From Chitinophagales bacterium (GTDB taxonomy: Bacteria; Bacteroidota; Bacteroidia; Chitinophagales; JADIYW01), in NCBI GenBank assembly GCA_044357355.1, contig JBIKPT010000002.1, positions 1 to 56,773 of the forward strand: a stretch of DNA of 56,773 bases. The letters are read 5' to 3'. A program made the position numbers and the translations under genes. The notes beneath the pieces are model-generated. The model did not search any database. It was not told where the DNA came from and was given only the letters and a program-made list of their open reading frames with translations. Shown here piece by piece: positions 6,654 through 45,162 of the stretch; position 1 is the first letter of the stretch; every line of letters starts with the position of its first letter.

Positions 6654-7556
6654 ATGAAATTCGCTGCTATAGATATTGGTTCCAATGCTGTCCGCTTAAT
6701 TTTTATTAATGTGTATGAAACACCAACCGGACCGCAGTTTGTGAAAGATGCCATGTATCGCGTGGCACTGCGTTTAGGTGAAGAGGCTTTTTTAAAAGGA
6801 AAAATCTCTGCTAAAAAAGAAGAAGAATTGCTTTCTACCATGAAGGCATTCAAACATCTGATAGATGTGCACAAGCCGGTGCAAATCATGGCGTGCGCAA
6901 CATCTGCCATGCGTGATGCCAAAAATGCTAAAGAAATTGTTGCCAAGGTTTTAAAAAAAACCGGCATCGATATCAAAATCATCAGCGGACAAAAAGAAGC
7001 GGAACTGATTCTCTCCAATCATGTAGAAACATTTCAACTGGATGTTTCAAAGAATTACCTGTACATAGATGTTGGCGGCGGCTCTACAGAATTGATTTTA
7101 TTATCGAAAGGAAAGCTTGTTGATAAATGGTCGTTCAATATCGGTACCCTGCGCATGACCTTGGGTAAAGTGAAAGAAAAACACTGGAAAGAACTCGACG
7201 TTTGGGTAGATCATTTCAAAGGAAAATATACGCCGTTGTTAGGCATCGGTTCCGGCGGAAATATCAATACCATTCAAAAGCATTTTGTGAAACGCAAAGA
7301 ACAGCAAGTGTACTATAGTGATTTACAAAAAACATTTGATGCGCTAAATGGAATGACTTTAGACGAACGTATTTTAAAATACGGTTTCCGGCCCGACAGA
7401 GCCGATGTGATTGTTCCGGCAGCGCAGATTTTTATGCATATCATGAAACGACTAAACATCGAAACATTACACGTGCCGAAAGTGGGTTTAGGTGATGGTA
7501 TGATACATGAAATGTATGAGAAGATGACCAAAGGAAAAAAAGTGAAAAAGAAATAA
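6654..7556 (+). CDS. ppx: Exopolyphosphatase (Ppx/GppA family)
   Basis: MKFAAIDIGSNAVRL..., DVGGGSTEL and IGSGGN are ASKHA-fold Ppx/GppA motifs. The gene lies next to ppk1. Confidence 0.85.
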   Translation: MKFAAIDIGSNAVRLIFINVYETPTGPQFVKDAMYRVALRLGEEAFLKGKISAKKEEELLSTMKAFKHLIDVHKPVQIMACATSAMRDAKNAKEIVAKVLKKTGIDIKIISGQKEAELILSNHVETFQLDVSKNYLYIDVGGGSTELILLSKGKLVDKWSFNIGTLRMTLGKVKEKHWKELDVWVDHFKGKYTPLLGIGSGGNINTIQKHFVKRKEQQVYYSDLQKTFDALNGMTLDERILKYGFRPDRADVIVPAAQIFMHIMKRLNIETLHVPKVGLGDGMIHEMYEKMTKGKKVKKK

Positions 7557-7560
7557 ACAC

Positions 7561-7974
7561 ATGAAAAACTTTATTTTTTTAATGCTGTTTGTTGTTGCCA
7601 ACAACGCATTTTCTCAAAAACTACACCTTTGTTTTACCTCCACAGATTCTGCTTATGCGGAAGATCCGATTCAGGTATCTTTTAATGTCATTGATAAAGA
7701 CTGGGCCAATGGTTTTGTGCAATATAAAGGACAAAAAGATGGTTATTTACTCAGCTTCAGTGTAGAGAAAACTATTGAAAAAATAGAAGGTGACGTTCCG
7801 CAAATAGAATATTCATTTAATGAAATTAAAAACGGAAAAACGACCGGCAAGTATTTTCTTGCTCTGAAAGGTCCGAAAGTTATATACTTTTATTATTTCG
7901 ATAAGCAACGAAAATCCAGGATTAATTTTGCGCAAGATTACAGCTCGGAAAACCAGTGCAGTTGCGAATGGTAA
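7561..7974 (+). CDS. Hypothetical secreted protein
   Basis: 137 aa with signal peptide MKNFIFLMLFVVANNAFSQ. No recognisable domain. Confidence 0.55.
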   Translation: MKNFIFLMLFVVANNAFSQKLHLCFTSTDSAYAEDPIQVSFNVIDKDWANGFVQYKGQKDGYLLSFSVEKTIEKIEGDVPQIEYSFNEIKNGKTTGKYFLALKGPKVIYFYYFDKQRKSRINFAQDYSSENQCSCEW

Positions 7975-17088: not shown

Positions 17089-18951
17089 CTATCTTCCTAA
17101 ATAAACCATCAGTACAGAAATATCTGATGGTGAAACGCCGGAAATTCTGCTGGCTTGTCCCAGTGTTTGCGGCTTCATTTTAGTCAGTTTCTGGCGTGCT
17201 TCCATACTCAGTGATGGCAGGCTCATATAATCAAATTCCGGCTTTAGTCTGACGTTTTCAATTTTATCCATCTTTTGCACCTGATCATACTCTTTATTGA
17301 TATAACCGTCATATTTTACGGATATTTCTGCTTGTTCCAAAAACTCTCTTTCGTATTTAGATAAGTGTTCTTTTACTACAGGTACATGTTCCATTAAGTC
17401 TAAAATACCTATCTGCGGTCGTGTAATTATCTTTTCCAACTTCATTTTATGCATCATTGGAGTTGTGCCTTTAGACTCCAGGTATGCATCTATATCTGCC
17501 GGTTCAATGCTAAATTCTTTTATGAAGCGTATAATTTCTTCCGTTGCTGCTTTCTTTTCCTGCACTCTGTCCATTCTTTCCTGCTCTGCAAAGCCAATTT
17601 TATGCGATAACTCGGTAAGTCGTAAATCAGCATTATCCTGACGTAATAGTATACGAAACTCAGCTCTTGAGGTAAACATTCTATAGGGTTCTTCCGTGCC
17701 TTTATTCACAAGATCATCGATAAGAACGCCAATGTAAGCTTCACTTCTTTTCAGGATAACAGGTTCCAGATCATTAATAGCACGATGTGCATTTATTCCT
17801 GCCATCATACCTTGAGACGCAGCTTCTTCATATCCTGTGGTGCCATTTATCTGACCGGCAAAAAACAAATTTTTAATCAATCTTGTTTCCAGCGAGAGAG
17901 ACAATTGTGTAGGCGGAAAATAATCATACTCAATTGCATAACCAGGTCTAAACATCTTTACCTTTTCGAAACCCGGAATTTGGGTTAGTGCTTTGTATTG
18001 CACATCTTCCGGCAGTGAAGTTGAAAATCCGTTTACATAGATTTCCACAGTGTTCCATCCTTCCGGTTCTACAAAAATCTGGTGTCTGTCTTTATCAGCA
18101 AAACGGTTAATTTTATCTTCAATCGACGGACAATATCTGGGTCCTAAACCCTGAATTCTACCCTGAAACATCGGCGATTTTTCAAAGCCGGTTTTGAGTA
18201 AGTCGTGTACTTTATCATTGGTATAGGTAATCCAGCAGCAGCGTTGTTCTTTTGGTTTTTCTATGTTTTTATAAGAAAAGCCTACTATATCTTCATCACC
18301 GTTCTGAACTTCCATTTTGGAATAATCCAGGCTCCTACCGTCTACGCGTGGTGGTGTTCCTGTTTTCATTCTGCCACTCTCAAAGCCTAAGGCCACCAAT
18401 TGTTCTGTAATTCCTTTAGATGCCTTTTCTCCTGCTCTACCACCGCCAAATTGCTTTTCTCCGATATGTATGATGCCATTTAAAAATGTACCGTTGGTTA
18501 GTACTACTGCCTTTGAACGGATTTCCATACCCATACCAGTTTTTATACCACAAACCACACCATTTTCTACTATGAGTTCAGCAACCATATCTTGCCAGAA
18601 ATCAATATTTGGTGTGTTTTCCAGCATTTCTCGCCAAACCAAATGGAACTGCATTCTATCGCTTTGTGCTCTCGGGCTCCACATGGCTGGTCCTTTTGAT
18701 AAGTTCAGCATTCTGAATTGTATCATTGTTTTGTCGGTAACAATTCCAGAGTATCCACCCATAGCATCAATTTCTCGCACAATCTGACCTTTTGCCACGC
18801 CACCCATTGCCGGATTGCAAGACATTTGAGCGATGGTTTGCATATTCATGGTGGCCAGCAGTACCTTGCTACCCATTTTAGCAGCGGCAACAGCAGCCTC
18901 ACAACCAGCGTGGCCGGCACCAACAACTATTACATCATACGATTGAAACAT
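17089..18951 (-). CDS. mnmG: tRNA uridine 5-carboxymethylaminomethyl modification enzyme MnmG (GidA)
   Basis: [19 protein letters not shown] motif and full-length GidA-like sequence (620 aa). Confidence 0.97.
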
Positions 18952-18970
18952 GTTGCAAAGATATACATAA

Positions 18971-18998
18971 GTCGTAAGTCGTGAGTCGTAAGTCGTAA
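18971..18998. repeat. Tandem heptamer array (GTCGTAA/GTCGTGA) x4
   Basis: gtcgtaa gtcgtga gtcgtaa gtcgtaa sits directly upstream of the mnmG start. It has the same period-7 GTAAG register as the arrays at 26974-27017 and 27109-27134. Confidence 0.8.
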
Positions 18999-19071
18999 GA
19001 ATTTATTACTAAATTCTAATTCCACAAAATAATACACATGTTTATAACCCGTATGTGGATTAGGGTTAACA

Positions 19072-23958: not shown

Positions 23959-25077
23959 GTGGTTGCCGCTGCGTTGCTGTTTCTATCCGCCAGAAATCCT
24001 GCAACTAAGTTTAATGAAACATCTAAGAACTTAATTACTGTTTCACTAATAGGTATACTGTTGGTTTATCTGCTTTCATTTTATAATTCGGAAAATCACA
24101 GCGAATATTTTAAAGTGATAAAAAATAAAATACCGTATTTATTTATTCCGCTTAGTTTAGTAAGCGTAGATAAATTATCAAAACAGCAGCTAATTTATAT
24201 TCAGTATTTTTTTATCGTTTGTTGCTTATATAGTTCTGGCTGGAGTTATTTTCAATATTTGCAAAACAGTGAAATCTATACCGACTTATATGCAAGAGGT
24301 GAAGTAATACCTACACTTATACATCACGTATCACTGGCTGTTTTACTTTGTTTTGCAGCGATACTTGTTTTAAACAATAGTGTATACAAAAACGGAAAAT
24401 TTGAGAAACTAATAAATGTACTGTTGTTAATCTGGTTTATTTATTTCCTGCATATTTTATCTGTAAGAACCGGAATTCTTTTGTTATACGTAAGTCTGTT
24501 CTTGTACGGTGCTATACTTTTGATTACTCAAAAAAAAATAGTGATTACAATAAGTTTATTATTACTGCTCATCCTAAGTTCTGTAATTTCTTATCACAAA
24601 ATTCCAACCATAAAAAGTAAAATAGCTTATACTTTTTATGGTATAGAACAATATCAAAATAAGCAAGATACTGCCAATGTGGTTTCAGACTCACGCAGAA
24701 TATTATCAGATAAAATTGGAATAGAAATCCTGCAAAAAAATAAACTTTCCGGTGTTGGAATAGGTGATATAAAAGATGAAATGCATATAATTTATAAACA
24801 ACGCTATCCGCAATTTAAAGTAGAAGTATATTCGCATATTCACAATCAATATTTATATACAATGTGCGGTGTTGGTTTACTAACAGGTTCTCTTTTTTGT
24901 ATCCTATTGTTATTACCTATGATTCAATTTATAAGAGATAAAAATTATGTTTTTGTTTTACTTTATGGAATGTTATTAATGGTGATGTTATGGGAACCCT
25001 TTATTGAAAGTCAAATTGGAAATTCAATTTTTTTTGTGGTTTGTTGTGTAGGATTTTTAAGTAAGCAAGAGAGATGA
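23959..25077 (+). CDS. O-antigen ligase (Wzy_C) family membrane protein
   Basis: Polytopic membrane protein with a periplasmic loop ...HIHNQYLYTMCGVGLLTG. The 5' boundary is uncertain. The frame is open and TM-like from 23818 but has no ATG, GTG or TTG before the GTG at 23959. Confidence 0.7.
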   Translation: MVAAALLFLSARNPATKFNETSKNLITVSLIGILLVYLLSFYNSENHSEYFKVIKNKIPYLFIPLSLVSVDKLSKQQLIYIQYFFIVCCLYSSGWSYFQYLQNSEIYTDLYARGEVIPTLIHHVSLAVLLCFAAILVLNNSVYKNGKFEKLINVLLLIWFIYFLHILSVRTGILLLYVSLFLYGAILLITQKKIVITISLLLLLILSSVISYHKIPTIKSKIAYTFYGIEQYQNKQDTANVVSDSRRILSDKIGIEILQKNKLSGVGIGDIKDEMHIIYKQRYPQFKVEVYSHIHNQYLYTMCGVGLLTGSLFCILLLLPMIQFIRDKNYVFVLLYGMLLMVMLWEPFIESQIGNSIFFVVCCVGFLSKQER

Positions 25078-26144
25078 AAAAAAGAATACTACATATCATT
25101 TCATCTGTCAACTGGCGCGGTGGCGAACAACAGGTAGATGCCTTATTTAATTATAGTCACGCTGATTTTGATTATTATATTTTTTGTCCGGAAAATGCTG
25201 AATTACAGAAACGAAACGAAGTAAAAAAAAACAAAATATTTACATACAAAAAACGTTTTGGTGTAGATATATTAGCAGCATTCAAATTGAAAAAAGTTTG
25301 CGCTGGAAATCAAATTGATTTAATACATCTGCACGATAGTCATGCTATCAATACCTATTATATAGCTTGTTTATTCGGATTAAAAATTCCATCCGTTATA
25401 CATAGACATGTTAACTTTCCTGTTACCAAAAAATGGAAATACAATGCTGAGAAAATCAAAAAAATTATCTGTGTTAGTGAAACAGTAAAAGCCGGTTTTC
25501 AGTCTTTTATAACAGAAGAAAAATTAGTAGTCATACAACCTGGAATACATATTAGTCAGTGGACTGAAAACAATAATTCACATAAAATAAAAAATGAGTT
25601 AAACTTGTCCAATGAACATAAAATAGTGGGAATGGTGGCTGCATTGGAAAAAGAAAAAAATATTGATGCCTTTTTAGAAATAGCAAAAAAAGTAATCGAA
25701 CAAAATAACAACATTCATTTCGTACTTATAGGCGATGGAACTTTGATGCATACTTATACACAATCAACTAACCAACAAAAAATGAATATTCATTTTTTGG
25801 GTTTCAGAGACGATGTGAAAGAATTAATTTCTGGTTTTGATGTGTTTTTATTTACTTCTAACAATGAAGGATTTCCGTTGGTATTACTGGAAGCCATGGC
25901 TGCTAAAATTCCAATACTTAGCAATAATTTTCCATCAGTTAATGAATTATTGCAATACCAACAAAACGGACTTCTTTATAAGAATATGGAAGATGCTGTG
26001 TATAAACTACAACTACTGAACAGTGAAACAACACAACGAAATCAACTTGTTGAAAATGCATTTCAATTTGTACAACAATTCGATATAACTTTAATGAATC
26101 AAAGAATAGCAGACGTTTATAAATCCATCTTTACACATGCATAA
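25074..26144 (+). CDS. Glycosyltransferase family 4 (GT-B)
   Basis: NNEGFPLVLLEAMAAKIPILS (E-x7-E motif). 4-nt overlap with the ligase gene. Confidence 0.85.
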   Translation: MKKRILHIISSVNWRGGEQQVDALFNYSHADFDYYIFCPENAELQKRNEVKKNKIFTYKKRFGVDILAAFKLKKVCAGNQIDLIHLHDSHAINTYYIACLFGLKIPSVIHRHVNFPVTKKWKYNAEKIKKIICVSETVKAGFQSFITEEKLVVIQPGIHISQWTENNNSHKIKNELNLSNEHKIVGMVAALEKEKNIDAFLEIAKKVIEQNNNIHFVLIGDGTLMHTYTQSTNQQKMNIHFLGFRDDVKELISGFDVFLFTSNNEGFPLVLLEAMAAKIPILSNNFPSVNELLQYQQNGLLYKNMEDAVYKLQLLNSETTQRNQLVENAFQFVQQFDITLMNQRIADVYKSIFTHA

Positions 26145-28335: not shown

Positions 28336-28540
28336 TAAGTTTATATCTTTAAAAGAATACATATAGTTGCGAACAAAAAAGTAGCGCAAAGCCATACAAT
28401 TTCTGTAGGATTGCCGCATAATTTTATATAAGAGTTGCGTATGTTTATGAGTTAGTGGCAACCCTTTTTGCGACCGACAGAGTAACAATAAACTGACTGG
28501 AAATCGACCTGAAATGCCAACCGCACAAAATGGCACATTT

Positions 28541-28578
28541 GGTTTTGCCAGACACAAAAGCCAACGCTTCGCAAAACC
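28541..28578. repeat. Hairpin with C/A-rich loop in the left flank of the cassette
   Basis: GGTTTTGC-(cagacacaaaagccaacgcttc)-GCAAAACC. The loop and stem resemble the hairpin at 33487-33545. Confidence 0.5.
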
Positions 28579-28630
28579 AAAAGAGCTAAAATTTTCCAAC
28601 AGCACGGACTGACATTTAGAAAATAATTAT

Positions 28631-28657
28631 TACATTTGACACTTCTTGACAAGTCAA
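28631..28657 (+). promoter_or_regulatory. Candidate promoter -7 element and operator of the XRE gene
   Basis: TACATTTG (28631-28638) fits the Bacteroidota TAnnTTTG -7 motif. TTGAC at 28636-28640 is repeated in the palindrome TTGAC-aa-GTCAA at 28646-28657. Confidence 0.35.
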
Positions 28658-28953
28658 AATACAGAAACGTGAGTTACCTAGGACAGAAAATTAGAGAAAC
28701 GAGAGAGAAGCAAAATCTGCTACTCAGACAAGTTGCTGCTCATATTGAAGTTGACACTGCATTAATGAGTAAGGCTGAAAGAGGTGAAAGGAATTTGAAT
28801 AGAGACCAAGTTGTAAAGCTTGCCAAATTCTTTAACTCATCAGAGGAAGAGTTTATTTCTCTATGGCTTTGCGACAAAGTAATTGAAGCGGTTGACAATG
28901 ACCCTTTGGCGACTCAAGGAATAAAAAAAGCGTTAACCAAAATCAAGAATTAA
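28636..28953 (+). CDS. XRE-family helix-turn-helix transcriptional regulator
   Basis: LGQKIRETREKQNLLLRQVAAHIEVDTALMSKAERGERN is a Cro/C1-type HTH. The TTG at 28636 or, more likely, the in-frame GTG at 28669 is the start. Confidence 0.8.
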   Translation: MTLLDKSKYRNVSYLGQKIRETREKQNLLLRQVAAHIEVDTALMSKAERGERNLNRDQVVKLAKFFNSSEEEFISLWLCDKVIEAVDNDPLATQGIKKALTKIKN

Positions 28954-28958
28954 TTTAG

Positions 28959-30935
28959 ATGCAAATCATTCATAAAATAGACAACTTTCTTTACACGATA
29001 TTTCCATCGGTTATTCAGGGCGACCAGCAATCATTGCTCAATGCTATTCAAGAATTTTATACTTACGGACCTTACAAGCCTAAAGTAACAATAGACAATG
29101 ACTTTGTCAGTATTGAGATTGACACACCCACAATTTTAGCTCAAGATTTAGACTACCAAAATGTTATTGCATTTTGTGAGAAAGGTAAATATGCTGATGC
29201 TAAACCTATTCTTAAAAAACTAATCGAGAAGAATCCTGCTATTTCGGAATATCACCGAATTATGGGACAAATACTTTCAGACGAAGGCGACCAAGAAGAA
29301 GCAATCAATTGCTTAATTGATGCATTACGTTGGGACTCAAAAAATGGATGGGCATTGCTTATGATGGGAAACATTTTTGCTAAGTTCAAAGATGATGTTC
29401 CAACTGCTATGAAATATTATGACCAAGCACTAATTGCAAATCCAAAGGACAATATTACCATAAACAACATTGGTGCAAACCTTATGCAACAAGGCAAATT
29501 GGAAGAAGCTAAAAAATATTTTTATGAAGCTCTAAAGATTAACGACAAATATGCAAACACTCATTTTGCATTAGGAATGATTGCTGAAATGGAAGCAGAC
29601 TTGCAGTCTGCTTTTTACAGCACCATTCAAGCTATTAAACTGAATAAGAGTAAGGATGTGTTATATCAGAACTCTGTAAGACAAGCTTTCGAGATTTCAA
29701 AAAAAATAATTGCAACTGATACTGGCAAAAAAATATTCAGGGAATACAGACATAAACTTGAATTTGATGGTGACAGAAAAATTGACATAATTCAAGATGA
29801 AGAAATACCAACGGCAGCAAAATTTGAGTTTGCCGAAAACTATGAAAGAGAAACTCACATTGTAAAATACAAACCAAGTTACCCAGCGGTTGAACATTTG
29901 ATTATGCATGAATTAGTGCATTTAGATTTTGTTATTGAAGCAAGAAAAGGTGCGTTAAACCAATTATTTATTTCTACTCAGAATCATAAAACAGAATTCA
30001 TAAAAGGACTTGAACCGACAATCAAGAAATTCAACAAAATGGGAATTTCTGAAAAGTCAATTGCGGATTATTGTTCGAATCTATTTGAAGGCATGAACCG
30101 TCAAATATTCAATACTCCAATTGACTTGTTTATTGAGAATTTCCTTTATAATGAATTTGCAGAACTCAGACCTTTTCAATTTATCTCTCTTTACAATATG
30201 TTACAAGAAGGCCTGAAGGCTGTAACAGATAAAAAGATTGTTGAACTCTCTCCTAAAGACATAATTTCAAAAAGCAAGGTTTACAATATTGTAAATGCAA
30301 TTCAGTTCAAAGAATTATTTGGTTTTGACTTTATCAAAGACTTCAATGCTACTCCATCAGAAATGAAACTTGCTACAGATTTTTATGACGAGTATCTTCA
30401 ATACAAAGATGATAAAGAACCTGCTGAAGAATATGAATTGGTTTTACATTGGGCTGAAGACTTAAAGGTTGACAAGAACTTTGAACTTGTTAATGAACAA
30501 GAGTATAGAACCAAAAGAACAGATATTGACAACCTTTTATCTTCAATAGAAAAAGATCCTTATGATTTAGAGTCCAAAGACCCATACAAACAGAGGGAAA
30601 TGGACAAATTTCAAAAATCGCAAGAGCAAATAGGTATAAACATGGCGACAGCCATGTTTATGGTTGATGCCTTGCAGTTTTTTGAAGGTAAACCAAAAGA
30701 GGAAATTAAAAAGATTGCTTTTGAAATAGCAACACAAGGAACTCAAGGCTATAGACCAGACAAAGATAATTATCGAATTAACTCTATTAAAGACAAGACT
30801 TTTTCAGGCTACCATATTTTAGCTTATTACTACGTTAGTTGGTCATTAGCAATTCCCGAAATGGTATCTCAATTAAACTTGCCTTATGAAGCAGAATATA
30901 AAATGGCATTGACAATGCATAAACCGAATAAGTAA
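28959..30935 (+). CDS. TPR-repeat protein with HExxH (HELVH) metallopeptidase-like motif
   Basis: 658 aa. TPR-like repeats span ~aa 62-230 (..GKYADAKPILKKLIEKNP.., ..AMKYYDQALIANP.., ..AKKYFYEALKIN..). H317-E318-L-V-H321 lies at nt 29907-29921, with Glu346 25 residues downstream. Confidence 0.65.
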   Translation: MQIIHKIDNFLYTIFPSVIQGDQQSLLNAIQEFYTYGPYKPKVTIDNDFVSIEIDTPTILAQDLDYQNVIAFCEKGKYADAKPILKKLIEKNPAISEYHRIMGQILSDEGDQEEAINCLIDALRWDSKNGWALLMMGNIFAKFKDDVPTAMKYYDQALIANPKDNITINNIGANLMQQGKLEEAKKYFYEALKINDKYANTHFALGMIAEMEADLQSAFYSTIQAIKLNKSKDVLYQNSVRQAFEISKKIIATDTGKKIFREYRHKLEFDGDRKIDIIQDEEIPTAAKFEFAENYERETHIVKYKPSYPAVEHLIMHELVHLDFVIEARKGALNQLFISTQNHKTEFIKGLEPTIKKFNKMGISEKSIADYCSNLFEGMNRQIFNTPIDLFIENFLYNEFAELRPFQFISLYNMLQEGLKAVTDKKIVELSPKDIISKSKVYNIVNAIQFKELFGFDFIKDFNATPSEMKLATDFYDEYLQYKDDKEPAEEYELVLHWAEDLKVDKNFELVNEQEYRTKRTDIDNLLSSIEKDPYDLESKDPYKQREMDKFQKSQEQIGINMATAMFMVDALQFFEGKPKEEIKKIAFEIATQGTQGYRPDKDNYRINSIKDKTFSGYHILAYYYVSWSLAIPEMVSQLNLPYEAEYKMALTMHKPNK

Positions 30936-31264
30936 TGAAAGAAAGCGAAGAAATAATAGAAGCACTTTTGAAATTCAGAAATGAAAGAGATTGGGAACAA
31001 TTCCACAATCCAAAAGATTTGGCATTAGCTATAAGCATTGAATCTGCTGAGCTTTTAGAATTATTTCTTTGGAAGAAAGCAGAGGATGCAAATACTGAAA
31101 AAGTAAAAGAGGAACTTGCTGACATTTTTTCATTTGCGTTTTTGCTAGCTGATAAATATGGATTCGATGTTAAAGAAATTGTCTTGGACAAAATCAAAAC
31201 GAATGGAGAGAAATATCCTGTAGACAAAGCAAAAGGAACATCAAAAAAGTACGATGAACTATAA
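30935..31264 (+). CDS. MazG-like nucleoside triphosphate pyrophosphohydrolase
   Basis: 109 aa. RDWEQFHNPKDLALAISIESAELLELFLWK and VKEELADIFSFAFLLA form the EExxE...ExxD metal-binding pattern of all-alpha NTP-PPases. TAATG start/stop overlap with the upstream gene. Confidence 0.8.
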   Translation: MKESEEIIEALLKFRNERDWEQFHNPKDLALAISIESAELLELFLWKKAEDANTEKVKEELADIFSFAFLLADKYGFDVKEIVLDKIKTNGEKYPVDKAKGTSKKYDEL

Positions 31265-33461
31265 CCAAGATTTTGAAATAAATAAAATTGCGTTCAATAA
31301 TAATGGATTGAATTCTATTCAATCACAATATTTTGTAAGCGAAAATTGGCCTGTCGTATATATTTTAAATAACAATGGTGTAAGTCAAGCCTATGTTGGT
31401 GAAACTATTGATACTAATTCTCGAATTTTCACACATTTGCAAACACCAAGCAAAAGTCATTTACAAGAAGCTCACTTAATTTCAAGCAGAAAATTCAACA
31501 AATCGGTGACTTTAGATATTGAATCCAATTTAATAAAATATTTACATGCTGATGGCAAATACAAATTATTAAATGGCAATTTAGGATTGGTAAATCACTC
31601 TTATTATCAAAGAGATGAGTTCTATTGGGACATGTTTAAAAATATTTGGAATGGTCTTATAAGTAACGGACTTGCCCAGCATAGTTTAGAACATATCTCA
31701 AATAGCGACTTGTTTAAGTATTCACCTTATAAGACCTTATCTGCCGACCAAAGAAAGAATTTGATGTTAATAATTGACGCACTTCTATCTGAAAATAAAA
31801 AATCAATATTGGTAGAAGGAGGCGCAGGCACAGGTAAAACCATACTTGCTATTTTTCTTTTTAAGTTAATGTTAACTTCTGATGAGGATTTTAATTATAG
31901 AGAATTCGGTGAAGACGAAAAAGAATTTGTAGATAAGGTAAAACAATTAAAGATAAAGTTTCCCAATCCTAAAATGGGTTTGGTGATAGCAATGGGTTCT
32001 TTTCGAAAAACTATTAAAAAAGTTTTTCGAAACATTAATGGCTTAAATTCTAATCTTGTTATTGGCCCTTCAGATTTGGAATATGAATCATATGATATTC
32101 TTTTTGTGGATGAATCTCATCGTTTGAGAAAAAGAGTTAATCTTGGCCCGTACTTCGCAATTTATGACAGGGTTTGTAATGCCCTAAAACTAGACAAACT
32201 AAACACTTCAGAATTAGCTTGGACTCAATTAAGGTCAAATAAAGTATTATATTTTTACGATGCTAAACAGTCTATAAAACCTTCTGATGTTGATGCTGTT
32301 GATTTTGAACACTTAAAAAATGCGTCTAACTCTATAAATGTAAAATTACATTCACAGTTCAGAGTAAAAGGAGGCAATGGATTTGTTGATTTTGTAAATA
32401 ATTTATTAGACAATAGTTTTAAGAATAAAGTATTCAAATACAACGACACCAATTATGACTTGCTTCTATTTGAGAATTTTTCTGATTTCGTTAATGAACT
32501 TAGAGAAAAGAACGAAAAACATCAACTTTCAAGATTCATAGCTGGTTATGCCTGGCCATGGATAAGTCAGAATGATCCTAATGCATATGATATTGAAATA
32601 GAAGATATAAAACTAAAATGGAATTCAACTGCAATTGATTACATCAATTCTGATATTGATGCACAAGAAGTAGGTTGTATTCATACCACTCAAGGTTACG
32701 ACCTCAATTATGCGGGAATAATTTTTGGTCCAGAAATTATATACAATCCAATATCAAAAGAAATTGAGATAGTAAAGGAAAATTATAAAGATAGAAATGG
32801 TACTGCAACAATAAGAGATAACGCAGTTCTTAAAGACTACGTAATAAATATTTATAAAACTATTATGCTCAGAGGCATACTAGGTTGCTATATTTATGTG
32901 TGTGACGAAAATTTGCGAAATTATTTTAAAAAGCATATCTATTTATTTAAGGAAAACAAGAATCCAATTGTTGAGATTGCTGAGTCAAAAGAAATTCAGT
33001 TGATTCCATTTGAAAATAGTGTTCCGCTATATTCCTTAAAAGTTGCTGCAGGTGAATTTAAGTTTAATGACAGTATCCCTGAAGAAAAATTCATTGCAGT
33101 TCCTGATGGCGTAAAAATTACACAAGACCATTTTGCGTGTAAAATAATTGGTAACTCTATGAACAAAATAGTACAAGATGGTCAAATAGCTTTGTTTAAA
33201 AGGTATACTGGTGGCAGTAGAAATGGCTTAATGGTCATTGCTGAATATTACGACCATCAAGATTTAGATTATGGTTCTTGTTATACATTCAAGGAGTATT
33301 ACAGTCAGAAAACTATTAACGAGGAAAGTTGGCAACATGAAAGAATAATTCTGAAACCAAAGTCATTTGATGCTTCATATCAAGATATAGTGATAGACCC
33401 GAATGCAATAAATGAAAAGACCTTTAATGTAATAGGAATATTTGACAGAGTAATTGAATAA
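31254..33461 (+). CDS. Three-domain fusion: GIY-YIG nuclease + P-loop SF1/DUF2075-type helicase + C-terminal LexA-like S24 peptidase domain
   Basis: GIY-YIG: VVY36IL..AY47VGET..R57..H61..E90..N92. Walker A: GGAGTGKT, aa 189-196 (nt 31818-31841). Walker B: ILFVDESH, aa 282-289. Helicase C-terminal motif: IHTTQGYDLNYAGIIFG. S24: PLYSLKVAA|GEF (A599/G600, nt 33048-33053), GNS635M (nt 33150-33161), TFK680EY. Confidence 0.8.
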   Translation: MNYNQDFEINKIAFNNNGLNSIQSQYFVSENWPVVYILNNNGVSQAYVGETIDTNSRIFTHLQTPSKSHLQEAHLISSRKFNKSVTLDIESNLIKYLHADGKYKLLNGNLGLVNHSYYQRDEFYWDMFKNIWNGLISNGLAQHSLEHISNSDLFKYSPYKTLSADQRKNLMLIIDALLSENKKSILVEGGAGTGKTILAIFLFKLMLTSDEDFNYREFGEDEKEFVDKVKQLKIKFPNPKMGLVIAMGSFRKTIKKVFRNINGLNSNLVIGPSDLEYESYDILFVDESHRLRKRVNLGPYFAIYDRVCNALKLDKLNTSELAWTQLRSNKVLYFYDAKQSIKPSDVDAVDFEHLKNASNSINVKLHSQFRVKGGNGFVDFVNNLLDNSFKNKVFKYNDTNYDLLLFENFSDFVNELREKNEKHQLSRFIAGYAWPWISQNDPNAYDIEIEDIKLKWNSTAIDYINSDIDAQEVGCIHTTQGYDLNYAGIIFGPEIIYNPISKEIEIVKENYKDRNGTATIRDNAVLKDYVINIYKTIMLRGILGCYIYVCDENLRNYFKKHIYLFKENKNPIVEIAESKEIQLIPFENSVPLYSLKVAAGEFKFNDSIPEEKFIAVPDGVKITQDHFACKIIGNSMNKIVQDGQIALFKRYTGGSRNGLMVIAEYYDHQDLDYGSCYTFKEYYSQKTINEESWQHERIILKPKSFDASYQDIVIDPNAINEKTFNVIGIFDRVIE

Positions 33462-33486: not shown

Positions 33487-33780
33487 CACACACATTTGCA
33501 AGCCTCACAAGCCAACACACAAGCCAAAGCTTGCAAAAGAGTGTGCCTGCCCAACCGCACAGACACCGTGACACAGTGGACAAACAAACCACGACAGAAA
33601 GAAGGGCAGCTTGTAACAGCACCTACCCAAAAGGCGGGGTTTCGTGTTCCAAAGACAGTTTTGTGGTTAATCAATCATTAGTTTTTCAAATCAAGTTTTG
33701 TGGTAAAAGTCCCGCCCTTCGGGTAGCTGCAAACCGTTAAAAATAAAAAAAGAGCAACTGACGCTGCTCTTGGGTTTTTC
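33487..33780 (+). ncRNA. Candidate structured RNA / structured 3' UTR downstream of the cassette
   Basis: C/A-rich and G-poor on the + strand. Hairpin CACACA-TTTGCAAGC...GCTTGCAAA-aga-GTGTG at 33487-33545. CTGCCC/GGGCAG helix at ~33547/33603. Long helix GCA.CTACCC....GGCGGG (33619-33638) pairs with CCCGCC....GGGTAG.TGC (33711-30). That helix encloses the direct repeat AGTTTTGTGGT at 33657 and 33694. The element ends in a terminator hairpin. Confidence 0.35.
33750..33780 (+). terminator. Rho-independent-type terminator
   Basis: AAGAGCA-actgacgc-TGCTCTT followed by gggTTTTTc, with an A-tract upstream. Confidence 0.55.
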
Positions 33781-33892
33781 TGTTTCTAGTGGGAGTTTTT
33801 GTTTCTAGACTTCAGGGTAGGTTTTGGGTTTCTTTTCTTTGGGTTGTTTTTATGTTTCTACACTTCAGGGTTGGGTTTCTATGTTTCCAGCC
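33776..33892. repeat. Imperfect tandem repeats carrying TGTTTCTA motifs
   Basis: Two ~48-bp units: gtttttgtttctagacttcagggtaggttttgggtttct.. and gtttttatgtttctacacttcagggttgggtttct... TGTTTCTA/TGTTTCC occurs at about 33781, 33800, 33853 and 33882. Confidence 0.6.
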
Positions 33893-42262: not shown

Positions 42263-43246
42263 TTACCACGTAGAAATAGTTTTTATGAACAAGGTATCTC
42301 TGTTGTCAATCGTTTTATCTGCTGTTCTTATTTTAATATTTCCACTACCTGCAAACTCAATCAGATTTTGACGAGCCTCAAACACCTCTTCACTCGGTGC
42401 GATGAAGGTTGCCAGTTGCTGCCATTTGCCTCGTTTGAAGCTGTATAAAATGACTTCACCAACTTGTCCATCCGGTTTTTTTATAACAATTGAAAAATCA
42501 TCAGAACCATCTCCGTCGACATCATTTTCATTCAACACATTTACACCGACACAATTTGGAAGTACAATTTCGGGTAAATCCATATTCGTAAATGAGATTT
42601 TTGTTTCAGTACTTAAATAGTTTTTACTGCTGTCCATTTCTGGTTTCAACACAATCAGGTCTTCGTTTTCACCATCGCCGTTGAAGTCACCGGAAGACAG
42701 ACTTTCACTCTCCTGAAAATTTTCGAACAGCGAAACAAGCTCCGGCCGAAGGTCTGCTTCTTTGTCGCTTTCAACAATAATACGCCAGGTGCTGTCGGCT
42801 TGTTTTTTAAAAATAAGATAAGAGTGATACACATTTGGTTTACTGTTGATAGTTACCAGTTTCAAAAACTCGCATTTATAGTCGCCTGTATCAGATGCAT
42901 AAATACCGATGCGACCAACAATTCTTTCGCGATAGGTGTCTGCATGTTTTATTTTATATTTTTTAGAAGCCAGAACGGATGGACGAGGAATTCTTTTTTT
43001 AAAAAATAAAACAGGATCATTATAATAATTTTCAAGACTGTCGATGTGTATACTATCATGTAATGAATTCCATTGGTATACCAGATCAATTACAGTTTGC
43101 TGCTCACCCGGCAACATTTTGTACGATTCTTTTATATTGTCTGCCTCCACTTTTTCAGTATCATTTTTTTCATTCTTGCAAGATGAACAGGCACTTAAAA
43201 AAATGCTGATAACGATACAAACGGATAGGATAATTTTCTTTTTCAC
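42263..43246 (-). CDS. Hypothetical lipoprotein with FG-GAP/Ca-binding-like DxDGD motifs
   Basis: The GTG at 43246 gives (M)KKKIILSVCIVISIFLSACSS. SGDFNGDGENEDLIV and NENDVDGDGSDDFSIV are present. Confidence 0.5.
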   Translation of the reverse strand: MKKKIILSVCIVISIFLSACSSCKNEKNDTEKVEADNIKESYKMLPGEQQTVIDLVYQWNSLHDSIHIDSLENYYNDPVLFFKKRIPRPSVLASKKYKIKHADTYRERIVGRIGIYASDTGDYKCEFLKLVTINSKPNVYHSYLIFKKQADSTWRIIVESDKEADLRPELVSLFENFQESESLSSGDFNGDGENEDLIVLKPEMDSSKNYLSTETKISFTNMDLPEIVLPNCVGVNVLNENDVDGDGSDDFSIVIKKPDGQVGEVILYSFKRGKWQQLATFIAPSEEVFEARQNLIEFAGSGNIKIRTADKTIDNRDTLFIKTISTW

Positions 43247-43916
43247 TGTTTTATTTTCACACGAAAGATAAGAAAATGAATGATGCCAGATACAAGAAAA
43301 GAAGTTATTTTTTATTTGTCCTTGCATCATTTTCTTTTTGTTACATGCATTTATAATGATTCTGGTTTTAAGAAAGTTTATAAAAATCCGCAGCGATAAA
43401 AATATTTTTCATTCACTGACGCGATTTATTTTATCCACTGAAATAAACATCTGTTGTTTTTACATGCGTTTATTTTGCGAAGAGCACTATATTTTTTACA
43501 GAAAAAAATAATGAAAACGACGCAACATTTGAATGAAATCTTTTCATACAAGATAAGGCTTTTAAAATTTATTACTGCTGATTGTCTTTCAAAACACTAT
43601 TGTTTACTACTAGTTTCAAGCGAAACAAAAAATCTGTAAAAATAATTTTTGAGTTAACAAGCTCGCTAAAAATACCTGACAACATTTTTATTTAAAAAGA
43701 AAGAACAAGATTTTAAAGACTAAAAAAGCGAGTTTTACGTTATCCACAATTATCAACATTTATGAATAACTCAGGTATTGTATAAAATGAATATTGTATT
43801 ACTTTTATATTGCAGAATAGTTAAAGGAGTATTTCAATCTGCAGATAAATAATAAAGTGCTCCAACAGAAAAGTTTCAACTGTTTAAAAATGAAACAAAA
43901 AACAAAATAAAAAACA

Positions 43917-44195
43917 ATGGCAAAGAAAACAGCAAGCGCAAAGCCAGCAGCAAAAAAAGCAGCAGCTCCAGCTAAGAAAGCGGTAGCGAAAAAAGCTCCA
44001 GCGAAAAAAGCAGCAGCTCCAGCTAAGAAAGCAGTAGCGAAAAAAGCTCCAGCAAAAAAAGCGGCAGCTCCAGCTAAGAAAGCAGTAGCGAAAAAAGCTC
44101 CAGCAAAAAAAGCGGCAGCTCCAGCGAAAAAAGCAGTAGCGAAAAAAGCTCCAGCTAAGAAAGCGGTAGCGAAAAAAGCTCCAGCAAAAAAGTAA
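43917..44195 (+). CDS. Histone H1-like Lys/Ala-rich repetitive DNA-binding protein
   Basis: 92 aa made almost entirely of AKKAAAPAKKAVAKKAP units. Confidence 0.75.
   Translation: MAKKTASAKPAAKKAAAPAKKAVAKKAPAKKAAAPAKKAVAKKAPAKKAAAPAKKAVAKKAPAKKAAAPAKKAVAKKAPAKKAVAKKAPAKK
43959..44192 (+). repeat. 51-bp tandem repeat (~4.6 copies) inside the histone-like CDS
   Basis: Units start at 43959, 44010, 44061 and 44112. They differ only at a few mostly synonymous positions. Confidence 0.9.
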
Positions 44196-44301: not shown

Positions 44302-45162
44302 TCAGAATGACAAGAATGAGAATTCACTTTTACGCTCACTTTCTTTCCACAATATTTCCTGTATGTTTTTATCATAAGAAATCGCAGATGATTTTTTTGC
44401 TTTGCAATTATGAAAATATTCACCGCTTGTATTTTTAACCTCACCGCAACTTGCAAGATAAATATGCGAGCTGGCACCTTTCTCTACCGTTAGTCCAAAT
44501 AATTTTGAAGCCGCATTCCAAACGAATCCGAAAAAGGCATTTCCATTTTTATTGCCAATTGGTGTGTACACAAAACCAGGATGCAAGGCATTGACAGTAA
44601 TATTAAACGGCTTCGCTTTTTCAGCTAATGCATAAGTAAATAAAACATTTGCCAGTTTGCTTTGCTCGTAAGCGCTCATTACAAAGTATCTGCCTTTCTT
44701 TTTGTAGAATGATTCCACATCGATATTTTTTGCACTACAATGAGAATCACTGGCAACATTTACGATTCTTGCTTCTGTTCCGGCTTTTAATAAATCAAAC
44801 AAATAGTAAGTCAGCCAGAAATAATTAAAGTGGTTGTTGGCCATTGTCATTTCAATGCCGTCTTCGGATAACTGAAAATCGGAAAAAACACCACCTGCAT
44901 TGTTCAGCAATACGTCCAGTTTGCTGAAGTCTTTTTTAATTTGTGTGGCAACCGTCTCCACAGATTTTTGAACGGCTAAATTGGCTGTATAGAGATGTAT
45001 GTTCTGGTTTCCTGAAAAGGATTTGATATCTGCAACGGCCTGTTCGCCTTTTTCTTTATTGCGGCACAACAGAATTATTTCGTGGCCTTGTTTTGCCAAT
45101 TGTCTGGCGGCTTCGAAACCTAAACCGGAATTAGCACCGGAAATGAGGATTGTTTTTTGCAT
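44302..45162 (-). CDS. Short-chain dehydrogenase/reductase (SDR)
   Basis: ILISGANSGLGFEAA (Rossmann), NNAG, and SAYEQSKLA (YxxxK). Confidence 0.85.
   Translation of the reverse strand: MQKTILISGANSGLGFEAARQLAKQGHEIILLCRNKEKGEQAVADIKSFSGNQNIHLYTANLAVQKSVETVATQIKKDFSKLDVLLNNAGGVFSDFQLSEDGIEMTMANNHFNYFWLTYYLFDLLKAGTEARIVNVASDSHCSAKNIDVESFYKKKGRYFVMSAYEQSKLANVLFTYALAEKAKPFNITVNALHPGFVYTPIGNKNGNAFFGFVWNAASKLFGLTVEKGASSHIYLASCGEVKNTSGEYFHNCKAKKSSAISYDKNIQEILWKESERKSEFSFLSF

Follow-up and report, generated by a model that had tools for sequence, protein, structure and literature searches.

Nhi and the Nhi-like proteins are validated DUF2075 defense proteins (10.1101/776245; 10.1101/2022.05.11.491447), and AbiO carries DUF2075 as well (supplement of PMC13092281). 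The Nhi helicase loads on invading or replicating DNA, and its nuclease cuts (10.1101/776245). In Nhi (S. epidermidis SERP2475), Nhi-like (B. cereus FSL H8-0482), and AbiO alike, an N-terminal nuclease is fused to a superfamily 1 (SF1)-type helicase of the DUF2075 family (PF09848). Here, we describe a cassette that falls within this nuclease-DUF2075 helicase defense class and has an undescribed regulator family in front. It lies in a 56,773-nucleotide (nt) stretch of DNA from a Chitinophagales bacterium (the window; GenBank assembly GCA_044357355.1, contig JBIKPT010000002.1, positions 1 to 56,773) and encodes, in this order, an XRE helix-turn-helix (HTH) regulator; a protein with tetratricopeptide repeats (TPR) and an HExxH motif, referred to as TPR-HExxH; a MazG-like protein; and a 735-amino-acid (aa) fusion of a GIY-YIG nuclease, a DUF2075 helicase, and a LexA-like S24 domain. 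The cassette is made of two separable modules and is not a fixed four-gene system. We put the probability that it is a horizontally mobile anti-phage (or anti-mobile-DNA) cassette of such modules at roughly 0.6.

The nuclease-helicase and its S24 domain

By sequence, no named system matches the cassette, and Nhi, Nhi-like, and AbiO are the closest. An earlier note on this DNA had likewise found no named counterpart, and PADLOC bears this out: the 735-aa protein gave a partial match to Nhi (1.9e-10, profile positions 259-372 of 470, or 114 positions) and one to PDC-S14 over the GIY-YIG part, and the AbiO model matched none of the window proteins. The note had also set Nhi aside, which does not stand, because Nhi, Nhi-like, and AbiO are of the same DUF2075 class as the window helicase. 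BLASTP of the window helicase against Nhi-like, of which 399 of 611 aa were recovered, matched in the Walker A/P-loop region only. The nuclease of Nhi, Nhi-like, and AbiO is of the PD-(D/E)xK type (HsdR-like; read from its sequence for the N terminus of Nhi-like), whereas that of the window protein is GIY-YIG, and the window protein adds a C-terminal S24 domain. Furthermore, whereas Nhi and Nhi-like are described as single-gene systems, the window helicase is always found with an overlapping MazG-like gene and often with a TPR-HExxH/XRE front end.

Residue conservation was scored across 23 homologs with 72-96% identity. In the helicase, the Walker A motif GGAGTGKT and the Walker B residues DE are invariant; a phmmer search of the PDB with the helicase returned no matches. 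The GIY-YIG domain falls below the Pfam cutoff in the window copy (E 0.003) and is supported by Pfam matches in homologs and by the invariant residues Y36, Y47, G49, E50, R57, H61, and E90. The invariant residues of the S24 part comprise A598-A599-G600, G633, S635, M636, Y677-T678-F679-K680-E681-Y682, L700, and P702, and translation confirmed the motifs GGAGTGKT, VAAGE, GNSMNK, and YTFKEY. A phmmer search of the PDB with the S24 part gave no match at E <= 0.01 and one unrelated match at E = 0.64.

The C terminus shares with LexA, UmuD, and lambda CI the S24 fold assigned by Pfam, an Ala-Gly dipeptide 35 residues before the GxSM serine, the hTxK+h context of the lysine, and the L-x-P strand, all of them invariant in the window family. 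The Ala-Gly to Ser spacing is the same as in E. coli LexA, and BLASTP between the two proteins aligned LKVAAGE with RVAAGE and GNSM with GMSM. Unlike LexA and its relatives, the window protein has no N-terminal DNA-binding domain and carries instead a 590-aa nuclease-helicase as the cargo, and its Ser-to-Lys spacing is 45 residues versus 37. In a variant whose helicase is 57% identical, the cleavage site and the Ser and Lys residues are retained, and the S24 linker is the best-conserved segment of its half of the protein. By sequence, the 735-aa protein has every hallmark of a self-cleaving S24 module, with predicted cleavage between A599 and G600, after which the N-terminal fragment would end ...LKVAA. 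This is a clean case of a putative immune effector fused to a predicted LexA-type autoproteolytic switch, and it bears on how immunity reads DNA damage or single-stranded DNA (ssDNA).

The MazG-like partner of the helicase

The MazG-like protein (Pfam MazG-like, PF12643) matches dCTP pyrophosphatase 1 (DCTPP1)/RS21-C6 in the PDB over nearly its full length (1e-16) and contains the metal motif ExxE...EExxD, read as IESAELLE...EELAD from the translation. It is, by homology, a DCTPP1/RS21-C6 relative with predicted catalytic activity. The signature ERDWEQFH...E..EL.ELF.WK...EEL.D...YP...KY..L is presumably conserved with DCTPP1. Enzymes of the DCTPP1/RS21-C6 type favor dCTP and 5-modified dCTP. 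The window protein differs from them in being a bacterial accessory gene product locked to nucleases, either DUF2075 or McrBC-like.

A genome scan with the 735-aa protein as the query yielded 28 loci (73-97% identity) in freshwater Bacteroidota metagenome-assembled genomes (MAGs) from several orders and in the isolate Lacihabitans sp. CS3-21. The loci compared here are mostly MAGs and short metagenome contigs, with genes in the fetched loci taken from simple open reading frame (ORF) calls. In all 23 genome loci with a visible upstream side, the MazG-like gene precedes the helicase gene with the same overlap. The XRE and TPR genes are present in three of the genome loci only (L002, L005, and L010), and the TPR gene is decayed in another (L020). 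In the two-gene loci, the MazG start codon marks precisely where DNA homology begins, and in several of these loci 40-180 nt from the 3' end of the TPR gene persist, so that the front end looks to have been lost secondarily.

Outside Bacteroidota, tblastn against plasmids detected GIY-YIG-DUF2075 proteins of 33-34% identity on Bacillus cereus-group megaplasmids; these proteins lack S24. Immediately upstream, on the same strand, 20 of the 20 Bacillus plasmid accessions common to both match lists encode a 109-aa "nucleotide pyrophosphohydrolase". The same overlapping MazG and helicase pair, at 36% helicase identity and again without S24, was found on a high-GC contig (L031). The Bacillus and high-GC relatives match the PADLOC Nhi and AbiO models partially only. 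Judging from these comparisons, the effector pair is old and cross-phylum, and the addition of S24 to the helicase belongs to this Bacteroidota clade. Helicases of the Nhi/AbiO class would therefore have an ancient, cross-phylum DCTPP1-like partner that is unreported in the literature searched, which contained no pairing of DUF2075, Schlafen, or GIY-YIG-helicase proteins with MazG and none of TPR plus HExxH with phage defense. A "MazG" system predicted by DefensePredictor was considered and discarded, being a different gene set (MazG with a MazG-C kinase, NMAD, and UDG).

The cassette is mosaic, variable in its genomic context, and sometimes decayed. The flanks differ in every genome locus, and no flanking gene is common with the window; neighbors include DpdF, PDC-S04/S13/S22, mad2/3, PsyrT, SIR2, PIN, Fic, and Bro-N, and L029, a Saprospiraceae locus, adds GmrSD/HNH and an EcoRI-type methylase. 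Identity to the window proteins varies along single loci: in L030 it is 91% for TPR, 93% for MazG, and 57% for the helicase; in L015, 77% for MazG and 97% for the helicase; and in L048 the front end is 95-99% identical and precedes a McrBC-like effector instead. Conversely, contigs with 98%-identical TPR proteins carry 76%-identical helicases. One MAG contains two copies of the cassette (L006 and L014), three copies are frameshifted (L020, L021, and L040), and plasmids carry it in Bacillus, Hymenobacter, and Marivirga. Cultured carriers of related versions are Lacihabitans sp. CS3-21, Hymenobacter canadensis PAMC 29467, and the B. cereus-group plasmids. The GC content of the window cassette, 0.30-0.34, is below that of the surrounding DNA. 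Mosaicism, differing flanks, duplicate and frameshifted copies, lower GC, and defense neighbors are typical of defense genes. A phage origin is unsupported; the matches in GenBank phages were four, all weak, and none had S24.

Two loci (L022, 99-719, and L023, 6185-6805) contain a 207-aa chimeric ORF directly upstream of MazG. Its C-terminal 90 aa match the end of TPR-HExxH and its N-terminal part is weakly similar to an MmeI methyltransferase domain (2.7e-05), so that it looks like a recombination scar. A further variation is a long MazG-like variant of ~204 aa with an unannotated N-terminal extension of ~100 aa (L064, L065, L093, L094, L108 [7228-7842], and others), which mainly precedes a McrBC-like pair.

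The TPR-HExxH front end

TPR-HExxH consists of a small N-terminal domain (residues 1-55), a TPR array (TPR_2, 9e-13), and a HExxH domain, and translation confirmed the HELVH motif. Over the C-terminal 409 aa, Pfam gave no match up to a cutoff of E <= 10. An exhaustive search assigned the HExxH domain to a family of 711 representative clusters at 50% identity (208 at E <= 1e-30), most members of which share an architecture of ~650 aa, some being split or without the TPR region. In an alignment of 62 diverse members, every sequence has H317 and D389, and E318, H321, H300, H313, and E393 are at least 90% conserved; a second conserved motif is NxPxDLFIE(D/N), which reads NTPIDLFIEN at residues 385-394 of the window protein. 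A first AlphaFold2 model of the full protein, from a shallow alignment, had a pLDDT of 59.5 and an unusable HExxH region; a model of the HExxH domain from the alignment of the 62 homologs reached 93.2 and runs through a helix, three strands, the HExxH helix, a strand, and a large helical bundle. In a PDB profile search, the matches were swamped by TPR proteins.

The earlier note had cited the ImmR/ImmA and CapH/CapP pairs as precedents. Homology of the protein to ImmA/CapP was dropped: Pfam found no Peptidase_M78/ImmA-IrrE match (PF06114) in the window protein or in the 62 family members, and hhalign against a Bacillus ImmA/IrrE protein gave a probability of 0.2%. The HExxH domain is a conserved, probably metal-dependent domain with a zincin-like local topology as modeled, outside the annotated peptidase families, and the label "metallopeptidase" rests on the HExxH motif. 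Otherwise, the front end is organized like CapH/CapP and ImmR/ImmA, in which a small XRE HTH gene is likewise next to a HExxH protein gene (5 nt apart in the window) at the head of an operon, and, as with CapH/CapP-type pairs, it is modular and found upstream of several unrelated defense systems. It differs from these pairs in having a HExxH domain of ~400 aa that is not M78-like and an N-terminal TPR array, and in that TPR-HExxH often lacks a detectable XRE partner and is translationally coupled to MazG. The window XRE protein gave PADLOC control-protein and capH-like HTH matches (4e-07 to 1e-05), and an XRE gene was detectable upstream of TPR-HExxH homologs in 19 of 57 metagenome loci.

To survey what TPR-HExxH genes sit in front of, metagenomes were scanned with the family alignment, and the best-scoring 80 of at least 495 matches were used (56-95% identity). 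The HExxH motif is intact in 74 of these 80 loci, and the N-terminal TPR part is kept in all 63 with enough upstream DNA. By ORF clustering, and in raw counts given without a background rate of defense neighbors, MazG and DUF2075 genes follow directly on the same strand in 25 loci, DUF2075 without MazG follows directly in 4, and MazG and then the contig end in 8. A McrBC-like pair (PADLOC PDC-M26A, 3e-49; DUF2357 plus PDDEXK_7) is downstream in 10 loci, in 9 of them after MazG; BREX (BrxA, 3.7e-19; BrxB, 9e-58; BrxC, E = 0, or the DUF6079/PglY type, 7e-271) in 8; a type III methyltransferase (4e-117) in 4; type I restriction-modification (RM) genes (HsdR, 1e-47; HsdM, 5e-197) in 3; and other or unresolved genes in 18. 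The neighborhood test called for in the note was positive and supports a defense association: the genes that directly follow TPR-HExxH homologs include BREX, type I RM, type III methyltransferase, and McrBC-like genes. These findings link a large unannotated family to at least five kinds of defense system and make TPR-HExxH a concrete candidate for the control of BREX, RM, and McrBC-like operons in Bacteroidota.

In most loci, TPR-HExxH is joined to MazG by a stop/start overlap or a gap of <=15 nt, including split and 26-31%-identity versions. Distant homologs in seven loci (L034, L035, L036, L037, L038, L039, and L040; 26-41% identity) are still followed by MazG, which in L037 and L038 is reduced to a remnant. 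For example, L035 has split TPR and HExxH genes, followed by MazG and GIY-YIG-DUF2075. In L036 (1-12000), TPR-HExxH, a MazG-like gene, a 743-aa DUF2075 helicase, a MkoA-like AAA_11/12 helicase (2.7e-31), and Endonuclease_NS are all co-directional; the N terminus of the DUF2075 helicase, as read from its sequence, is apparently PD-(D/E)xK, not GIY-YIG, and S24 is missing. L039 is a mobilizable plasmid of Hymenobacter canadensis PAMC 29467 (NZ_CP114769.1) that encodes TPR-HExxH (41%), MazG, a hypothetical protein, AAA_5, and McrBC. Comparison of L036 and L039 revealed no homologous extra upstream gene. Near the L039 cassette are a second DUF2075 gene, PLD-like genes, and a SIR2 gene, a plasmid-borne defense island in a cultured isolate.

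Because TPR-HExxH homologs front several unrelated effectors, the front end and the effector are separable. The single four-gene system of the earlier note therefore dissolves into an invariant MazG-helicase pair and a front end that a minority of the genome loci possess and that also precedes other effectors.

Proposed function and alternatives

We infer the defense phenotype, all enzymatic activities, what triggers the system, and which way the two proteolytic switches work, as follows. The XRE HTH and TPR-HExxH would form a defense-operon front end that controls the operon or its products: the HTH would repress the operon, the TPR array would sense an infection- or damage-derived ligand, and the zincin-like HExxH site would then cleave the repressor or a downstream component, by analogy with CapH/CapP and ImmR/ImmA. 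In the second module, the DUF2075 helicase would translocate along DNA that is invading or being replicated and the GIY-YIG domain would cut it, as in the related Nhi, while S24 would self-cleave at Ala599-Gly600 upon meeting RecA-ssDNA filaments and so switch the activity of the enzyme. Cleavage may activate the nuclease-helicase or mark it for ClpXP via the new ...KVAA end. The DCTPP1-like MazG would hydrolyze dCTP or 5-modified dCTP, and this removal would either starve modified-cytosine phages or prevent salvaged modified nucleotides from being built into host DNA, thus sparing self from the nuclease. The starvation or self-protection role is the most speculative step; a part in (modified) dCTP removal is suggested by the fact that MazG accompanies both DUF2075 and McrBC-like (modified-cytosine) nucleases. 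The data agree with the general scheme put forward in the note, in which a regulator pair and a nucleotide enzyme accompany a nuclease-helicase that has a proteolytic switch.

A bolder version of the anti-phage reading is offered tentatively. Here, XRE plus TPR-HExxH would be a new, widespread sensor-protease family gating BREX, type I and type III RM, McrBC-like, and MazG-nuclease-helicase systems, functionally analogous to CapH/CapP and unrelated to it in fold; in the effector, RecA-triggered, LexA-type self-cleavage would for the first time be seen to set the activity of a nuclease-helicase; and its obligate DCTPP1-like partner would remove (modified) dCTP, starving cytosine-modifying phages or preventing autoimmunity.

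Several results weigh against a defense cassette regulated in this way. None of the four proteins has a full-length match in PADLOC 2.0; the neighbors at the genome loci are mixed, many of them housekeeping genes rather than classic defense islands; and close relatives are absent from IMG/VR, so that phage carriage is uninformative either way. Protease activity of TPR-HExxH remains putative: a Foldseek search of the PDB turned up no structure related to its HExxH domain (best E = 0.67), and the matches in BFVD are weak, being CobT/VWA-type phage proteins at E 5e-3 to 0.07 and TM ~0.3, with annotated peptidases at E > 0.3 only. Bacteroidota employ S24 repressors (non-canonical LexA) for the SOS response, with the box CTAA-N5-TTAG (PMC8565304). 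Neither this box nor a near match precedes the operon, and the window as a whole has no more copies of it than chance predicts; this search gave no support to the DNA-damage trigger considered in the earlier note. In the BREX and type I RM loci, moreover, 85-1500 nt separate TPR-HExxH from the next gene, and this adjacency may reflect co-location, not regulation. Finally, most MazG-helicase loci lack XRE and TPR, which indicates that these genes are dispensable for keeping the effector.

The last two observations also favor the idea that TPR-HExxH (alone or together with XRE and MazG) does not regulate the genes after it but is an accessory or defense gene in its own right that shares hotspots with other defense systems, so that two unrelated systems would be neighbors in the window. 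So do the loci L037 and L038, in which TPR-HExxH has an integrase, a WYL regulator, and DUF2779 as neighbors and only a MazG remnant is left. We regard this idea as unlikely, given the overlaps or short gaps that tie TPR-HExxH to MazG in most loci and the TPR-HExxH remnants in two-gene loci, which point to secondary loss. A more serious contender, although still a doubtful one, keeps the cassette and inverts its logic: S24 cleavage would be a safety OFF switch, in which RecA filaments formed upon host DNA damage lead to cleavage that exposes a ClpX-type ...KVAA degron and the nuclease-helicase is destroyed, sparing the stalled forks of the host. The C terminus left by cleavage resembles that of the LexA 1-84 fragment, which Neher et al. 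in 2003 reportedly found to be recognized by ClpXP. Moreover, relatives without S24 (Bacillus, L031, and L036) evidently work, so that S24 is an added control layer. However, many immune effectors are held inactive until a trigger releases them, and the strong conservation of the linker fits ON and OFF alike.

Two further explanations dispense with phage defense. A module for DNA-damage repair or tolerance, composed of a UvrC-like GIY-YIG nuclease with a helicase, a pool sanitizer, and SOS-type post-translational control by S24, would account for the LexA-like site and the DinB_2 neighbor in the window, and photolyase genes adjoin two loci. DCTPP1-type enzymes are house-cleaning enzymes, which would suit such a module too. 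This is nevertheless very improbable: the flanks vary from locus to locus, and the nadA and DinB_2 neighbors, conserved in no other locus, are incidental; the distribution is patchy, with mosaic modules and some pseudogene or duplicate copies; the front-end gene is common to BREX, RM, and McrBC-like systems; an SOS box is lacking upstream; and the DUF2075 nuclease-helicases characterized so far are defense proteins. We give slightly less credence still to a selfish addiction or anti-plasmid module that stabilizes its mobile DNA, with the nuclease-helicase as the toxin and MazG as the antidote. Carriage on Bacillus, Hymenobacter, and Marivirga plasmids would suit it, and the tight two-gene overlap recalls toxin-antitoxin architecture, E. 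coli mazG itself being situated in the mazEF operon; however, most Bacteroidota copies are chromosomal, without integrase, transposase, or repeat boundaries.

Organization of the locus and its flanks

ORF calls and translation confirmed the four same-strand ORFs of the earlier note and their junctions: a 5-nt gap between XRE and TPR-HExxH, a TAATG stop/start between TPR-HExxH and MazG, and an 11-nt overlap between MazG and the 735-aa protein (Table 1). The domain inventory was upheld as well, with GIY-YIG through homologs, and so were the flanking genes, which encode quinolinate synthase NadA (Pfam, 7e-122) and a DinB_2-superfamily protein (Pfam, 9.5e-07).

Table 1. Positions of the cassette genes, their parts, and adjacent elements in the window
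Feature	Position	Strand	Evidence
Leader, putative promoter of the four-gene form	28554-28635	+	Homology to other four-gene loci; conserved AGAGCTAAAATTTTCCAACCGCACGGACTGACATTTAGAAAATAATTATTACATTTGAC
Bacteroidota-type -7 box, TAcaTTTG	28630-28637		Within conserved leader
XRE/Cro-C1 HTH regulator	28636-28953	+	Pfam HTH_3, 1.1e-07
Candidate operator palindrome, TTGACAAGTCAA	28651-28662		Upstream of GTG 28669
TPR-HExxH protein, 658 aa	28959-30935	+	Pfam TPR only; motifs
TPR repeats, residues ~66-250	29154-29708	+	
HExxH domain, 409 aa	29706-30932	+	
HELVH	29907-29921	+	
TAATG stop/start	30933-30937	+	
MazG-like all-alpha NTP pyrophosphohydrolase, 109 aa	30935-31264	+	Pfam MazG-like, 1e-20
GIY-YIG/DUF2075 helicase/S24 effector fusion, 735 aa	31254-33461	+	Pfam; invariant residues
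GIY-YIG, residues ~30-115	31341-31598	+	
SLFN-g3_helicase/DUF2075 SF1-type helicase, residues 183-551	31800-32906	+	Pfam, 1.4e-54
Walker A of the helicase	31818-31841	+	
LexA-like S24, residues 591-735	33024-33458	+	Peptidase_S24, 1.4e-07; 8.8e-09 on isolated C terminus
Predicted cleavage site, A599|G600	33048-33053	+	
Ser635	33156-33158	+	
Lys680	33291-33293	+	
CA-rich conserved 3' element, right after the stop codon	33462-33565	+	Conserved in 12 loci
Bidirectional intrinsic-terminator-like hairpin closing the operon	33750-33781	.	

DNA homology to the other four-gene loci begins at 28554-28582, and AGAGCTAAAATTTTCCAACCGCACGGACTGACATTTAGAAAATAATTATTACATTTGAC is conserved in the leader alignment; we take the leader to be a likely promoter. 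The XRE ORF opens at TTG 28636 (105 aa). The true start is probably GTG 28669 (94 aa), downstream of the -7 box, and a 94-aa XRE gene matching this start was called in L029.

The note had described structured DNA on both sides of the operon. Hairpins are indeed present in both flanks, but the 3' flank as a structured RNA was rejected, as it folds no better than shuffled sequences (z = -1.33), and the short conserved hairpin alone survives. Terminal repeats of a mobile element were likewise rejected, since the two flanks do not align and share a single piece of 22 nt with an 82% match. The surviving element (~100 nt; hairpin core, TTTGCAAG...CTTGCAAA) is kept in two-gene and four-gene forms alike, with compensatory changes at three of eight stem pairs, and could serve as a terminator, a recombination site, or a 3' untranslated region. 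No Rfam or tRNA matches were found in the window.

A separate small repeat, a hairpin element of ~65 nt (GCACATTTGGTTTTGCC...GCAAAACCAAAAGAGC), lies just upstream of the cassette at 28525-28595. It also brackets the cassette of the Saprospiraceae locus L029 (9575-9637 and 14938-14996, 93% identity) but none of the other four-gene loci has it; it may represent a small repeat resembling repetitive extragenic palindromes or miniature inverted-repeat transposable elements (REP/MITE-like), or a recombination site. Past the terminator, a 26-nt intergenic tandem repeat of 3.2 copies (GTTTCTACACTTCAGGGTTGGTTTTAG) occupies 33801-33887. Elsewhere in the window, a 51-nt tandem repeat (4.4 copies, 94% identity, unit CAGCAAAAAAAGCGGCAGCTCCAGCTAAGAAAGCAGTAGCGAAAAAAGCTC) is found at 43948-44170, between the ORFs 42263-43330 and 44302-45162, and TAAGTCG is repeated 4.6 times at 18968-18999, in the kilobase with the highest GC content of the window (18001-19000, 0.42). 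A glycosyltransferase gene upstream of nadD (25074-26144) shows a weak secondary GT4-conflict match (PF20706, 1.2e-07) below stronger generic GT1/GT4 matches and is probably an ordinary polysaccharide gene.

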